Virus record (IMG/VR): IMGVR_UViG_2645727945_000025
Location: 1 to 43,691 of that record
Origin: a virus
Lineage: Duplodnaviria; Heunggongvirae; Uroviricota; Caudoviricetes
Length of the DNA stretch: 43,691 nt
Strand: one strand, 5' to 3'
Shown: positions 26,415 through 42,361 of the stretch, one piece after another
Layout: every line of letters begins with the position of its first letter
Numbering within the stretch: the first letter of the stretch is position 1
Notes under the pieces: model-generated
The model's database searches: none
What the model saw: the letters and a program-made list of their open reading frames with translations, nothing else
Told to the model about the DNA's origin: nothing
Program-made: the position numbers and the translations under genes

Positions 26415-27326
26415 ATGGACCAAACCACCGACATTCAGGCTTCTGAAGAATTAACCCTGCCCGGCAATCATGCAGCGGCATCTGCTGATGGCTTAGTTGT
26501 CGATAATGCCAACGACAACGCAGGTCAGGAAGAAGGCTTCGAGATTGTCCTGAAAGACGATGAGAAACCAAAACAAGACCCGGCAACTAATGCTGAATTT
26601 GCCCGTCGCCGCATCGAACGCAAACGCCAGCGTGAGCTTGAGCAGCAGATGGAAGCGGTTAAGCGTGGAGAGTTGCCGGAGCACCTGCGGGTGAACCCTG
26701 AGTTACCAAAACAACCAGACCCTAACGATTATCTTTCCGAAGATGCACTGGCTAAGTACGACTATGACCAGAGCCGCGCACTGGCTGCCTTCCAGCAGGC
26801 AAACAGTGAATGGCAGATCAAGGCTATGGACGCACGAAGCCAGGCTGTCGCCGAGCAGGGTCGCAAAACTCAGGAGTTCACCCAGCAATCAGCGCAATAC
26901 GTCGAGGCAGCCCGTAAGCACTACGACGCAGCGGAAAAGCTCAATATCCCTGACTATCAGGAGAAAGAGGATGCATTCATGCAACTGGTGCCGCCAGCAG
27001 TCGGTGCCGACATCATGCGCCTCTTCCCGGAGAAATCCGCTGCTCTCATGTATCACCTTGGTGCTAATCCTGAGAAAACACGCCAGTTGCTGGCGATGGA
27101 CGGGCAATCCGCGCTGATTGAACTCACTCGACTGTCAGAACGTTTAACTCTCAAGCCTCGAGCCAAGCCTGTTTCAGAAGCCCCGTTACCTGATGAACCC
27201 ATTCAGGGACACGCTGTTGCTGCAAATATCTCTGCGATTGAAAAGCAGATGGAAGCGGCAGCAAACAAAGGGGATGTAGAGACATACCGCAAGCTCAAGG
27301 CGCAACTGAATAAAGGAATTCGATAA
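26415..27326 (+). CDS. Scaffolding protein (P22 gp8-like, 303 aa)
   Basis: Recalled high similarity to P22 gp8. Confidence 0.9.
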
Positions 27327-28621
27327 TGGCATTAAATGAAGGTCAACTGGTCACGTATGCTCTGGATGAAATCATCGAAACCGTCCAGAACCTGACGCCA
27401 ATGGCGTCTAAAGTGACAAAATACACCCCTCCGGCAGAATCCATGCAGCGTTCAAGCAACACCGTGTGGATGCCTGTTGAGCAGGAAGCGCCAACCCAGA
27501 CTGGCTGGGATTTAACTGGCAACGCAACCGGGATTCTGGAACTCTCCGTGAAATGCAACATGGGCGATCCGGATAACGATTTCTTCGAGCTTCGTGCAGA
27601 TGACCTGCGTGATGAGCGTTCTTACCGTCGCCGCATCCAGGCATCCGCCAAAAAACTGGCGAATAACATTGAGTCAGCGATTGCCAAACAGGCAACTGAA
27701 ATGGGCTCGCTTGTTGTTCACGATACCCGCGCAATTGGTCCATCTACTGGCCTGTCTGGCTGGGATTTTGTGTCTGATGCAGAGCGCCTGATGTTCTCCC
27801 GTGAGCTAAACCGCGATATGGGCATCAGTTACTTCCTGAACCCTGACGATTACCGCAAAGCAGGCCGCAACCTGGTAGATGGTGACATCTTTGGGCGCGT
27901 TCCTGAAGAAGCGTATCGCAACGGTACTATTCAGCGTCAGATTGCTGGCTTTGATGAAATTCTTCGCTCACCGAAACTTCCGGCAGTTACCAAGTCAACC
28001 GCTACTGGTGTAACTGTTTCTGGTGCGCAGAAGTTTAAGCCGCAGGCATACACCCTTGATACCGATGGTAACAAAGAGAACGTCGACAACCGTGTTGCAA
28101 CGGTGACCGTATCCTCCACCACCGGATTTAAGCGCGGCGACAAAATCAGCTTCACTGGTGTGAAATTCCTGTCTCAGATGGCGAAGAACGTGCTGACTGA
28201 TGACGCGACTTTCTCAATCACCCGTGTGATCGATGGTACTCACATCGAAATCACGCCGAAGCCGATTGCGCTTGATGACGCTTCACTGACAAAAGAAGAG
28301 AAGGCTTACGCTAACGTAAATACTTCTCTTGCTAATAACACTCCGGTAAACGTTCTGAACGTGGCAACAACCACCGCTAACGTGTTCTGGGCTGATGACT
28401 CAATCCGTCTGCTTTCTCAGCCGATCCCGGTAACCCATGAACTGTTTGCTGGCATGAAAACGTCTTCCTTCAGCATTCCAGGTATTGGTGTTAACGGCAT
28501 CTTCGCAACGCAGGGTGATATCAACACTCTGTCTGGTAAGTGCCGTATTGCTGTGTGGTATTCAGCATGTGCTGTACGACCAGAGGCAATTGGTGTTGGT
28601 CTGCCTAACCAGACCGCGTGA
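27326..28621 (+). CDS. Major coat protein (P22 gp5-like, 431 aa)
   Basis: Recalled high similarity to P22 coat protein. Confidence 0.95.
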
Positions 28622-28665
28622 TAACCAGAGGGAGCTTCGGCTCCCTTTTCTATCTGGAGACAAGC

Positions 28666-28933
<268 letters not shown>

Positions 28934-28956
<23 letters not shown>

Positions 28957-29434
28957 TTTAGTTCTTGCGGCATTACGTAAGCTCGGTGTGGCATCAAATG
29001 CCACGTTAACCGATGTCGAACCGCAGTCTATGGAAGACGGCGTCAACGACCTTGAAATGATGATGGCTGAATGGCTTGGCGGTGATGCGTCACCTGGTAT
29101 CAACGTTGGCTACATTTTTGCTGATGCAGATGTTGCTCCGGATCCGGGCGATGAGCACGGTTTATCAAATAACGCTATCAATGCCGTCATTTTCAACCTT
29201 GCCTGCCGAATTGCTCCAGATTATGCGCTGGAAGCGTCTGCAAAACTTATAACCACTGCCAGATACGGGAAAGAGCGACTCGTCAAACTGTCTGCAATGG
29301 ACAGGGCAAAAGCAGCTAAATGTAAGTCCGGTTATCCAAACCGTATGCCTGTTGGTAGTGGTAACCAGTTTGCGAAGTGGAATGGTTGGAATTACTTCCA
29401 CCGAAAGGAATCTTGCGATAACGGGAGCGAATAA
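28934..29434 (+). CDS. Tail adaptor / head completion protein (P22 gp4-like, 166 aa)
   Basis: Recalled similarity to P22 gp4; real start is internal Met44 of track ORF 28805-29434. Confidence 0.85.
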
Positions 29435-30852
29435 TGCCTATTCAGCAACTTCCGCTTATGAAAGGTGTCGGCAAAGACTTCCGAAACGCCGATTATATCG
29501 ACTATCTGCCAGTGAATATGTTGGCTACACCCAAAGAAATCCTCAACAGTAGCGGATATCTTCGCTCATTCCCGGGCATTGCCAAACGTTCTGATGTGAA
29601 CGGTGTATCTCGAGGCGTCGAGTACAACATGGCGCAGAGTGCTGTATATCGCGTGTGTGGGGGCAAGTTGTATAAGGGCGAAAGTGAAGTCGGCGATGTT
29701 GCCGGAAGTGGTCGTGTATCATTGGCTCATGGTAGGACATCACAGGCGGTTGGCGTTAACGGGCAACTGGTCGAGTATCGCTATGATGGCACGGTTAAAA
29801 CCGTCTCAAACTGGCCTACAGACAGCGGATTCACGCAGTATGAGTTAGGTTCGGTCCGTGACATTACGCGTTTACGTGGGCGTTATGCGTGGTCAAAAGA
29901 CGGTACTGATTCATGGTTTATCACTGACCTTGAAGACGAATCGCATCCTGACCGTTACAGCGCACAATATCGCGCAGAATCGCAGCCGGACGGTATCCTC
30001 GGCATCGGAACATGGCGAGACTTCATCGTCTGCTTTGGTTCATCGACTATTGAATATTTCTCCCTGACTGGCGCAACCACCGTTGGTGCTGCTTTGTATG
30101 TCGCGCAGCCATCGCTGATGGTGCAAAAAGGCATCGCCGGGACTTACTGCAAAACGCCGTTTGCTGATTCCTATGCGTTTATCAGCAATCCGGCAACAGG
30201 TGCGCCGTCTGTATACATCATCGGCTCCGGTCAGGTGTCACCAATCGCCAGCGCGAGCATTGAGAAAATACTACGCTCCTACACTGCTGATGAACTGGCT
30301 GATGGCGTGATGGAATCGTTGCGCTTTGATGCGCATGAGTTGCTGATTATCCATCTTCCGCGCCACGTACTCGTGTACGACGCATCTTCAAGCGCCAATG
30401 GTCCGCAATGGTGTGTACTGAAAACAGGCCTGTATGACGATGTGTACCGCGCTATCGACTTCATTTACGAAGGCAATCAAATAACGTGCGGCGATAAGCT
30501 GGAGTCCGTGACCGGGAAATTGCAATTCGACATCAGCAGCCAGTACGACAAGCAACAGGAACACCTGCTGTTTACTCCGTTGTTCAAAGCGGATAACGCC
30601 AGAGTGTTCGACCTTGAGGTTGAATCGTCAACTGGCGTTGCGCAGTATGCTGACCGCCTGTTCCTCTCTGCAACCACTGACGGCATAAATTACGGGCGTG
30701 AGCAGATGATTGAGCAGAATGAACCGTTCGTTTACGACAAACGCGTTTTGTGGAAGCGAGTAGGGCGCATCAGGAAAAATGTTGGCTTCAAATTGCGCGT
30801 TATCACGAAGTCTCCTGTCACTCTGTCTGGCGCTCAGATAAGGATTGAGTAA
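29434..30852 (+). CDS. Tail hub protein (P22 gp10-like, 472 aa)
   Basis: Size and synteny; recalled similarity to P22 gp10. Confidence 0.9.
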
Positions 30853-31700
30853 TGGCGGATTCGAATCTCAATGTGCCGGTAATCATTCAGGCCACACGGC
30901 TCGACACATCAGTCCTTCCACGCAATATCTTCTCGCAGTCGTATCTGCTTTACGTTATCGCACAGGGCACTGATGTTGGTAATGTGGCGAACAAGGCCAA
31001 CGAGGCCGGACAGGGCGCTTATGACGCACAAGTCAGGAACGATGAGCAGGATGTGATTCTCGCTGACCATGAGCAGCGAATTTCTGCTGCGGAAGCAACG
31101 CTTGTTAATCATGAGGAGCGAATCAGCCAGGCAGAATCAACTCTTCAGGAACATGAAACGCGAATCGCTCAGAATGAAAGCGATATTGCGTCTCTTGATA
31201 CCAGAGTTCAGTCGCTGGAGTCGCAGGTTTCAGACCATGAAACGCGCATCGATGCTCTGGAGTATGCCACTACTCGCAAGAAGTCGGAGGTTGTTTACTC
31301 TGGCGTATCTGTAACCATCCCAACAGCGCCGACCAACCTTGTTAGCCTGCTGAAAACGCTCACGCCGTCATCCGGCACGTTGGCACCATTCTTCGATACC
31401 GTTAACAACAAGATGGTTGTGTTCAACGAGAACAAAACCTTGTTCTTCAAGCTGTCGATCGTCGGGACGTGGCCCAGCGGAACCGCTAACAGATCAATGC
31501 AGCTAACCTTTTCCGGCTCTGTTCCTGACACACTGGTTAGCAGTCGTAATGCGGCGACAACAACCGACAACATTCTGTTAGCTACGTTCTTCAGCGTGGA
31601 TAAAGACGGCTTTCTTGCCACAAATGGCAGTACGTTAACCATTCAGTCAAATGGTGCGGCGTTTACTGCCACAACCATCAAAATCATTGCGGAGCAGTGA
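30852..31700 (+). CDS. Tail needle (gp26-like) with extended C-terminal domain, 282 aa
   Basis: N-terminal gp26-like segment and heptad coiled coil; C-terminal ~140 aa extra domain. Confidence 0.8.
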
Positions 31701-32179
31701 TGGAAATAAAGCTCATCGATAATCCGGTGAAGCTTGCAGAATTCCTCAACAACCCGGCAAACACGGGAAATATCGTAGACAGTGGAGATAAATACTACAT
31801 CAAGCCTGATGCGGTATATCTCGGCATCTACGAAGGATTAGTGCTGGCTGGAGTTCATGAAGTGCGTAACTTCTGGCATAGCGTTGTTGAATGCCATGCG
31901 GTGTATGACCCCGGATTCCGTGGAGAATATGCACTGCAAGGGCATCGATTATTCTGCAAATGGCTTCTCGAAAACTCACCATTCCTTAACAGCATCACCA
32001 TGGTTCCTGACACCACCAAATACGGACGGGCAATTATCCGTTTGCTTGGCGCTACCCGTGTTGGTCACCTTGATGATGCTTATACCAGCAATGGAAAGCC
32101 TGTAGGCATCACGATTTATCAGTTACCGCGCTCAAAATACGAGGAGCTAAAGAATGTTAATTTTCCAGATTGCCAATAA
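31697..32179 (+). CDS. P22 gp14-like virion accessory protein
   Basis: Synteny and size. Confidence 0.75.
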
Positions 32180-38749: not shown

Positions 38750-40885
38750 ATGACAGACATTACAGCCAATGTGATCGTATCGATGCCTTCGCAACTCTTC
38801 ACTATGGCTCGTTCTTTTAAAGCCGTAGCCAATGGAAAAATTTATATCGGTAAAATTGACACTGACCCGGTAAATCCTGAAAACCAGATTCAGGTTTATG
38901 TGGAGAACGAAGACGGCTCTCACGTTCCTGTATCGCAGCCAATCATCATTAACGCTGCCGGATATCCTGTATATAACGGACAGATTGCCAAATTCGTAAC
39001 TGTGCAAGGCCATTCTATGGCTGTTTATGATGCATATGGGGCGCAGCAGTTCTATTTTCCTAATGTGCTGAAGTATGACCCTGATCAACTCAGGTCTGAA
39101 TTATCAGCTCAGGGTGGAGATAAGATTGTTGGTAGTTCGTATGGCGGAACCGTCTATACAGACTACAGTCCATCAGAATTCATTAAGTTTGCAGAATTCA
39201 CCGTCCCAACAAGTCTTTCAAACAATAGACAAGCCGTTAAATATATAGACGGATTTTGGTATGTATGGAATGGAACATTTCCATACAATACTGGAACGTC
39301 AAATCCTGGTAATAATGACACATGGAAATGCGTTGGACTTCTAAATGGTTTTTCGGTTAATGACGCTCAGAACTTTGGCTTCACAGGGGGTATGGACGAT
39401 GCACTTCCAGCGCTAAATGCGATGATTAGAAGCCCATTTTTTGAAATGTTTTTCCCTATTGGAAGTGAAATTAATATTTCGTCTGACTGGAATCTCCGTT
39501 CAAATTTATATATAAACTTTCACGGTTCAACAATCAACTGGATGGGTGCTGCTTTCTCAAGTTCTGATGTTGTGAATGGTAGCGAGATGGCTATTTTAAA
39601 TACGCCAAATTTTTCAGGTGGAACTACAGGGGCACTCGTAAACCTTCATCTGTCAAACTTAAATATTAAAGCAAATGATTACGCAATAGGCATAAGTGCA
39701 AGGAATATTACAAATTTCTCTATAGAGAATGTTTATGTAGAGAAAGCGCAACGTCAAGGAATTAATGTATCTAATTGCCAGAATGGATGTATTAATCAAA
39801 TAACTCTGAAAGATTGCTCTCCTTTATCTGATAAAGGATTTACTAGTTCACAGCTAGAGAGTTGGGGCGATGGATTGATTGTATGGTATGGAAGCACTAA
39901 CGTATCCATTGATAACATTAGAGTTGAATCAGGAAATAATTCACGAGGAGGTCGCTGCGGTATCTGTATCGATGGTTATGCTCCATCCGGAAAGCCAGAT
40001 TCACGCAATATTTCTGTAAATAACGCTTATGTTTACGGTTATGACAGGCCTATACATACCGAACTATGCGGTATTGTTACCGTAACTAACAGTGTTTTCG
40101 AATACAACTCAGGCTCTGACACGCATCACTTTTTGCAATGTGGTGTCGTCGTGTGGAATGTCCTTGAAACCACTACTTTTATCAACTGCACGTTTCGCAC
40201 AGATATGCGGTTTATGAAAAACTCAGGCGCTAAGGCGAAATTCATAAAATGTAATGTGTACAAAACATCAAGCACTGAGCCTATGTTTATAACAGGTACA
40301 GAGCAAACAGGTATAGTTAATTTTGATGACTGCTTACTTTCTCATGCCGGTGGTGAATGGGGGGCTTGGAACTGTTCATTAAGTTTTAATGGTTGCACGA
40401 TATCATCTGATTCTGCTGGATCTGTTATTAATTTTGGTAGCGAATCCATACCAAAAAATATCACTATTGTTAATTCACATCTGTTAAACACATCAATATC
40501 AGCACTGTTCGCACCTGGATTTACTGAAATTCATCTTTCTAATTCAACAATAAATGGAGATGTTAATTGCGGACCTTCTGCCAGACTTCGTGTAAATTCA
40601 TGCGATATATATGGAGTTGTTACATGCAATAGTGTAATGAGATACAACGGACAGAAACCAAATAAATTAATTTATTTGCAAAATGCAGACCAGCAATACA
40701 ATGGCATGTGGCTAGGAACGCGCCCACCACTAGGTGCTAGACCAGATGGATCTGGAGATTGGTTGAGGGGTGATATAGTTTTTAATCTCGACGCCATAGA
40801 GTCAACACCATTCCAATGGTATTGCGTAACCCCAGGATCGCCTGGAAGATGGGCTGTATCTGGAACTCTTGGCGCAGCTTCTTAA
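38750..40885 (+). CDS. Tailspike (P22 gp9-family head-binding N-terminus plus divergent receptor-binding domain), 711 aa
   Basis: N-terminal ~115 aa recalled as the conserved P22/HK620/Sf6 head-binding domain; remainder AT-rich with repetitive beta-strand-like segments. Confidence 0.9.
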
Positions 40886-41137: not shown

Positions 41138-41201
41138 ATTCGTAATGCGAAGGTCGTAGGTTCGACTCCTATTATCGGCACCATTTAAATCAATAAGTTA
41201 C
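41138..41201. repeat. attR of prophage 1 and attL of prophage 2: second 64-bp core copy with tRNA 3' fragment
   Basis: Identical to 1399-1462; the 5' tRNA half is not reconstituted here (no GCCGAT acceptor strand upstream). Confidence 0.85.
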
Positions 41202-42361
41202 ACATCATTAGTACCTTCCTTATTTTTTGACTGGGACAAATTTGGGACCGATGGGTTCAGAATCGAGTCTATTTGCCGTGCGTGTTCGGTAAGGTGATTA
41301 GGCGCGAGGTGAGCATATCGACGAACCATTTCGATAGACTCCCAGCCACCCATTTCCTGTAACACTGACAACGGGACTCCGGCTTGAACCAGCCAACTTG
41401 CCCAGGTGTGTCTCAAGTCGTGAAATCTGAAATCATCAATACCAGCTCGTCTCAGCGCCGCTTTCCAGGCTGTGTTTGCGTCATACCGCATCTTCCTTAC
41501 TGTTGGCGCTTTCGTTCCGTCTGGTTTGGTACAGCTTTCCTTGTACACAAATACCCAACGGTGATGATTCCCGATTTGTTTTTTCAAAACGCGACATGCA
41601 GTATCATTCAGCGCAACGCCGATTGCGCGGTTTGATTTACTCTCTTCCGGGTTTATCCATGCCACCCGGCGCTGCATATCTATTTGTTGCCATTCAAGGT
41701 TGATGATGTTCGAGCGTCTTAAACCTGTTGCCAGTGCAAATTCAACAACAGACTTTAATGGCTCCGGACATTCATCAATCAGCCTTTGTGCTTCATGGGG
41801 CTCCAGCCAGCGGATCCGTTTATTCTTTGGTTGAGGCACTTTAATAATTGGTGCCTTATCCAGCATTTTCCATTCACGCTCTGCGGCTCTTAGTAGGGCC
41901 TTTATAAATGAAAGATGCGTAGCCTTCGTTGCAACGGACGCTGGTTTTGGCGTGTATTCTGGAACAGGTTTCCCTTTTTTTCTGCATGCTTCTGCCCTGA
42001 GTTTCCAGTTTTCCTCATGACGCCGGTTCGTCATTTTCTGCATTGCTGAATAAATTTTTGATTCAGTAATGTCTCTTAGTTGCATTCCTGCGAAATGTTG
42101 AAGCCAGAATCCGATCCGGCTTTTGTCATCGTCCAGTGATTTTTTATGTGCTTTCTCTTCAAGCCACCTGACACACGCTTCCTCGAACGTTATATCAGGT
42201 ATTTCACCAAGTTTGCTGACCCGCCATGCTTCAGCCTTTAGCTTGTCATGGAGTTCTGTCGCCTGCCTTTTGTCCTTTGTTCCAAGAGACTGTTTAAATC
42301 TTTTACCGTTCGGCAATGTGAAACTGGCGTACCATATTTCACCTCTGCGGAAGAGTGACAT
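41198..42361 (-). CDS. int: Tyrosine integrase of prophage 2 (P22 Int-like, 387 aa)
   Basis: Recalled close similarity to P22 Int ([33 protein letters not shown]...); stop inside the att core. Confidence 0.95.

Follow-up and report, generated by a model that had tools for sequence, protein, structure and literature searches.

The window analysed here, i.e. the whole stretch of 43,691 nucleotides, harbors a mosaic Lederbergvirus-type prophage of 39.7 kb that carries an integrase gene. It is flanked by an exact 63-bp direct repeat (attL/attR) at positions 1400-1462 and 41139-41201. The integration site is a tRNA-Thr(CGU) gene, thrW, located just downstream of an aldehyde-dehydrogenase-family gene, which is presumably proA, given the known order proA-thrW. 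From terminase through tailspike, full-length open reading frames (ORFs) follow each other in the expected order, and those that were searched matched the expected families. Judged by its sequence, the 39.7-kb prophage is apparently complete. Next to the prophage, directly at attR, another tyrosine integrase gene begins (41198..42361, minus strand), which suggests that a second element was inserted at this tRNA gene in tandem.

The virion genes were assigned by family searches and synteny. Between the coat gene (27326..28621) and the gene of the gp4-like adaptor lies a small repeat-containing ORF (28618..28956, plus strand). The adaptor ORF is listed at 28805..29434, and its Pfam domain P22_Tail-4 begins at amino acid (aa) 45. 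Then follow the gp10-like tail hub gene (head closure Hc3; 29434..30852, plus strand; PHROG 578, E 9.5e-228), the tail needle gene, homologue of Sf6 gene 9 and P22 gene 26 (30852..31700, plus strand), and the gp14-like gene, named DUF2824 or ‘head morphogenesis’ (31700..32179, plus strand; PHROG 651, E 5.4e-74). The ATG of the latter is found at 31700; the mechanical ORF list begins this gene at a GTG at 31697. On the 3' side of the gp14-like gene are located a gp7-like ejection protein gene (PHROG 598), a gp20-like gene (Pfam Inj_translocase) and an ORF in the gp16 position, which had no Pfam match and was placed by synteny with Sf6 gene 13. This order, gp4-gp10-needle-gp14-gp7-gp20-gp16, is the canonical P22-like virion module. 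Around the needle gene it is common to Sf6, Kapi1 and HK620, and the needle-gp14 arrangement is the same in Sf6 and Kapi1. An antirepressor-like gene separates the gp16-position ORF from the gene of the 711-aa tailspike (38750..40885, plus strand), the primary receptor-binding protein of such virions. In the tailspike, Pfam Head_binding was recognised at aa 1-113 (E 7e-67). Matches to Pfam and to the PDB were confined to aa 1-121, i.e. by sequence no solved relative was found for the tailspike body (approximately aa 125-711).

The small ORF upstream of the adaptor gene deserves a separate description. It contains a perfect tandem array, (CAGAGC) x 12.7, at positions 28811-28886, which reads as a (PE) run in the frame of this ORF. 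By position, the ORF corresponds to Sf6 gene 6 and HK620 hkbT. The array-containing stretch of 501 bp measures 441-477 bp in the phages Dewey, Louie, HZ41, IME10, APC_JM3.2 and CurroJimenez, and these sequences suggest in-frame variation of the copy number among phages. The same array makes the mechanically listed ORF of the gp4 homologue (28805..29434) over-long.

The needle ORF itself starts with an ATG, preceded at about 9 nt by an AAGGA Shine-Dalgarno motif, and comprises 282 codons followed by a stop. At its 5' end, start codon and gp10-like stop overlap in the motif TAATG, and the two genes are translationally coupled. Likewise, at its 3' end, stop codon and gp14-like start overlap in the motif TGATG, within the junction sequence CAGTGATGG. 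A first-pass annotation of this DNA had described the product as a gp26-like needle of 282 aa, and both the ORF and the identity of 277 of 282 residues to Sf6 gp9 agree with that description. The same annotation had proposed a gp26-type N-terminus, a heptad coiled coil and a C-terminal part of about 140 residues rich in Thr, Ser, Asn and Gly; all three elements were recovered.

Three regions can be distinguished along the protein. The first is the N-terminal gp26-type domain (aa 1-55; 30852..31016, plus strand), which was identified by matches to gp26 structures and to which the role of plugging the tail hub channel is attributed by analogy (PMC3741392, PMC9728967). In the alignment this domain is almost invariant among Sf6, Kapi1, P22 and HK620, and over aa 1-73 most positions are invariant in the five aligned needles. 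A PDB search matched the N-terminal part with the P22 gp26 structures 2POH, 3C9I and 8EAP, the gp26 chains giving E values of 1e-42 to 1e-46. Over aa 1-137 the protein is 59% identical to P22 gp26 in BLASTP.

The second region is the coiled-coil shaft, predicted to be trimeric (aa 56-139; 31017..31268, plus strand). It is defined by a heptad register that runs without a break from about aa 56 to aa 139, and by an alignment to the helical core of P22 gp26 that extends to aa 137. In the last ten heptads the ‘a’ positions, from L70 to I133, are all Ile, Leu or Val; the ‘d’ positions, from H73 to L136, are occupied by His, Ala, Asn or Leu. By our own count aa 56-139 form 12 seven-residue rows, and the Sf6 and P22 needles have been described with 11 heptads (PMC3741392).

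The third region, the Sf6-type needle knob (aa 140-282; 31269..31697, plus strand), measures 143 aa, and Thr, Ser, Asn and Gly together make up 40.6% of it, versus 23.7% of aa 1-139. Its identity follows from several searches. PF16532, ‘Sf6-type phage tail needle knob’, matched aa 108-282 with 388.7 bits (E 3.4e-117; the cutoff is 27 bits), and the profile was covered end to end (positions 1-175 of 175). PHROG 1030, ‘tail needle knob’, matched the protein with an E value of 1.3e-135. In the PDB search, aa 130-282 retrieved the knobs of Sf6 (3RWN, E 3e-90) and HS1 (4K6B, E 8.9e-90), from which the knob differs by only one or two substitutions (approximately 99% identity). Together with the 98% identity to Sf6 gp9, these matches bear out the earlier suggestion of an Sf6-like C-terminal knob. 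Since PF16532 matched over its full length and 3RWN and 4K6B were retrieved as well, a novel C-terminal domain was ruled out.

A structure prediction of the C-terminal part had been proposed as a check. The AF2 single-sequence model of aa 130-282 reached a moderate pLDDT of 63.5, and a fold search with this model likewise retrieved 3RWN and 4K6B as best matches, with a TM of 0.76. The next matches were C1q/TNF-like jellyrolls, including BclA, EDA-A1 and PRD1 P5. The knob is assigned to the TNF-like jellyroll fold. As the AF2 model is only moderate, this assignment rests mainly on the approximately 99% identity to the crystal structures.

At the residue level, the knob can be compared with the ligand contacts published for Sf6 (Leavitt et al. 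2013, PMC3741392). In Sf6 and HS1, the trimeric knob is approximately 45 Å wide, buries three L-glutamates at the subunit interfaces and holds a phosphate at the distal apex (PMC3741392). All six contact residues of L-Glu (E146, K200, S248, D250, L255 and K277, Sf6 numbering) are kept in the window, as is the apical phosphate triad S231-R232-N233, so that all nine ligand residues are identical. Relative to Sf6 gp9, the needle carries three substitutions in the shaft (R92S, D100E and S113A) and two in the knob (S234A and S270A), all five being conservative. S234A adjoins the phosphate triad, which itself is unaltered, and Ala270 is also the state reported for the HS1 needle (PMC3741392). No allele-specific changes at functional residues were found in the comparison with Sf6 gp9 and the published ligand residues. 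A comparison with Sf6 gene 9 shows 45 nucleotide differences, which amount to 39 synonymous and 5 nonsynonymous codon changes, a pattern as would be expected under purifying selection. What the sequence shows directly is the identity of the protein, its division into domains, the class of its fold, the retention of the ligand residues and the gene context. Every feature that defines the Sf6-type needle class and can be examined in sequence is present: plug, shaft, PF16532 knob, jellyroll, ligand residues and gene position.

Altogether, the product is almost certainly the tail needle of a P22-like (Lederbergvirus) prophage of the Sf6/HS1 type from E. coli/Shigella, working by the plug, shaft and knob mechanism of that group, and no feature of the sequence speaks against this reading. 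Trimer formation, hub plugging, ligand binding and a kinetic role would all be carried over from the literature on near-identical proteins. Accepting this analogy, one needle would consist of three chains. About 55 N-terminal residues of each would enter the channel of the hexameric gp10-like hub, plug it and retain the packaged DNA; without gp26, packaged DNA leaks (PMC9728967, PMC3741392). Residues from about 56 to 139 would form the trimeric coiled-coil shaft, and aa 140-282 would fold as a trimeric Sf6-type TNF-like jellyroll knob. On infection, the tailspikes would bind and cut the O-antigen, and the needle, which is positioned to touch the outer membrane first (PMC3741392), would then reach this membrane and be released. 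Its release would open the channel for the ejection proteins and the DNA. The knob would tune the speed of DNA delivery and would not choose the host.

The division of roles proposed in this last step derives from published experiments. P22 with the knobs of Sf6 or HS1 infects Salmonella normally (Leavitt 2013, PMC3741392), mutations of the glutamate ligand site had no measurable effect, and a P22 needle tipped with foldon was functional but showed slower K+ efflux (PMC3741392). Leavitt et al. concluded that the tip has no role in host specificity and affects the kinetics of DNA delivery (PMC3741392); the kinetic measurements were made with P22 chimeras infecting Salmonella and not in an E. 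coli/Sf6-type background. The first-pass annotation had considered that the knob may influence receptor use or ejection triggering. The chimera, ligand-mutant and foldon results disfavor the former, as P22 with Sf6 or HS1 knobs infects Salmonella normally, and support the latter through the effect on ejection kinetics.

Receptor use nevertheless merits consideration as an alternative, in which the knob would be a host-specificity or secondary-receptor-binding domain comparable to the adenovirus fibre knob or PRD1 P5. The TNF-like fold is common to the receptor-binding P5 of PRD1, as seen in our fold matches and stated in PMC3741392, and the knob sits at the distal tip, where first contact with the outer membrane is expected. 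In addition, OmpA and OmpC are secondary receptors of Sf6 (PMC9728967), and in the 2013 survey the Sf6-type knobs of P22-like phages were confined to Escherichia and Shigella phages (PMC3741392). However, P22 chimeras with Sf6, HS1 or foldon tips infect Salmonella, with an infectivity that is normal or reduced but real, so the tip is neither essential nor host-restricting. Moreover, the tailspike is the established determinant of specificity, and knobs differ by at most 4.9% among P22-like phages (PMC3741392), which is the opposite of the diversification that a receptor-binding domain would be expected to show. We therefore regard a receptor-binding knob as very unlikely. A narrower variant would be that in E. 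coli and Shigella the knob, with its bound L-glutamate or its apical phosphate site, specifically senses a component of the envelope, for example OmpA/OmpC or inner-core LPS, and so triggers needle release. The P22/Salmonella chimera experiments would have missed such a role, and S234A, beside the phosphate triad, could then alter sensing; we hold this variant to be very unlikely.

Besides its role in infection, the standing of the gene in its host has to be weighed, and here the distribution of the needle is informative. A megablast search of 5426 complete E. coli genomes matched the needle gene in 914, where its PGAP name is ‘tail needle knob protein’, and only 474 of these 914 matches reach a coverage of at least 80%. 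In addition, small P22 remnants with a needle gene of the Sf6 type have been reported from more than 100 E. coli genomes (Leavitt et al., PMC3741392). Both observations would fit a non-functional relic within a defective prophage. On the other side, the gene in the window is full length and shows the 39 to 5 ratio of synonymous to nonsynonymous changes relative to Sf6, and the surrounding element spans 39.7 kb with an integrase, ORFs from terminase to tailspike and exact 63-bp att repeats. Its size, these repeats and the complete virion module rule out a prophage-remnant origin, and it is highly improbable that the needle gene is a relic. Least of all could the protein be a standard P22-type gp26 needle whose added length results from a frameshift, a misplaced stop or fusion to the next gene: its first 137 aa are indeed 59% identical to P22 gp26, but aa 140-282 are dissimilar to aa 141-233 of the P22 and HK620 gp26 proteins, all 282 aa are collinear with the equally long Sf6 gp9 without gaps, and the gp14-like gene that follows is an intact gene of its own, so that an ORF-calling artefact or gene fusion was ruled out and this origin has practically no chance of being correct.

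The preferred reading, an Sf6/HS1-type needle of plug, shaft and knob, is that of a protein already fully known, from its sequence and structure to its distribution and the effects of mutations. An identical sequence of 282 aa is present in public collections on at least 1000 contigs, under the name ‘MULTISPECIES: tail needle knob protein [Enterobacteriaceae]’. The value of the present result is consequently a correct annotation, and the gene places the prophage in the Sf6/HS1 needle class of the P22-like phages of E. coli and Shigella. On the part played by the knob and its bound L-glutamate in natural infection, a question common to the whole family, the copy in the window sheds no new light.

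Sf6-type needles were found in 69 of 164 P22-like genomes, with a knob divergence of at most 4.9% (Leavitt et al., PMC3741392), and the needle in the window falls within this range. In 2013 the P22-like phages with such knobs were Escherichia and Shigella phages only (PMC3741392). Two records lie outside this description. Firstly, the needle of the Salmonella P22-like phage vB_SalP_ABTNLsp11242 (MW790496.1) matches all 282 aa, including the knob, at 61.9% identity. Secondly, the Klebsiella phage phiKp_30 record LC768498.2 contains the needle gene at 95% nucleotide identity. Set against a survey restricted to Escherichia/Shigella and to at most 4.9% divergence, these sequences indicate that the Sf6-type knob family appears to be broader than was described. 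In a separate observation, the 90%-identity cluster of the needle protein also lists ‘DUF2824 family’ proteins of 153-159 aa (P0003, P0006), which are products of the adjacent gp14-like gene. Their presence is probably a clustering artefact or due to overlapping or fused gene calls, and biologically meaningless.

Among known systems, gp26 of Salmonella phage P22 is the natural reference for the N-terminal half. In the P22 and HK620 gp26 proteins (PDB 2POH, 3C9I, 5BU5), plug domain, shaft and gene position are homologous to those of the needle in the window, and P22 gp26 acts as channel plug and membrane-contacting needle, a role that the protein described here would share. This similarity ends at the shaft. 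BLASTP against P22 gp26 gave no significant alignment past aa 137, the P22 and HK620 gp26 chains in the PDB cover aa 1 to 137-145 with no match beyond, and a MAFFT alignment of the C-terminal halves with P22-type tips was gap-ridden, with only scattered identities. Homology to the P22-type tip (gp26 aa 141-233; HK620, epsilon34 and P22 subtypes) was thus looked for in the needle and was not found: a tip of 93 aa in P22 stands against an unrelated 143-aa jellyroll knob here. As aa 140-282 lack similarity to gp26 aa 141-233, the sequence comparison argues that the Sf6-type knob replaces the P22-type tip, i.e. that it is an alternative tip and not an addition. This modifies the idea of an ‘extra’ C-terminal domain with which the locus had initially been labelled. 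The domain is real and longer than that of P22, and P22 gp26, described in that annotation as shorter, indeed has 233 aa versus 282 aa. It is, however, not extra, because length and domain content are standard for the Sf6 type. The comparisons with both phages that had been suggested agree on this point: relative to P22 the homology stops at aa 137 and the length is not the standard one, and relative to Sf6 the alignment is collinear, gap-free and of equal length.

Among the closest references is gp9 of Shigella phage Sf6 (NP_958185; ‘tail needle protein’), whose knob crystal structure is PDB 3RWN (Bhardwaj et al. 2011). It also has 282 aa, its 277 identical residues align ungapped, and the three-part architecture, the ligand residues and the gene neighborhood are all common to both proteins. 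In the case of the needle of the E. coli prophage HS1 (knob PDB 4K6B), the knob shows one difference over aa 131-282, and the shaft is longer, with 16 heptads versus 11, the needle in the window having a shaft of Sf6 length (PMC3741392). The ‘tail needle knob protein’ of Escherichia phage Kapi1 is identical at 279 of 282 positions, and the Louie needle protein shows 99.3% identity over aa 1-268. More distantly, PF16532 includes knob homologues from large phages, among them T4-like and ViI-like ones, with 36-51% identity over about aa 112-268, for which Pectobacterium PP99, Salmonella PhiSH19 and Aeromonas 44RR2.8t are examples. Unlike the needle described here, these are stand-alone knob proteins that lack the gp26-type plug and shaft (PMC3741392).
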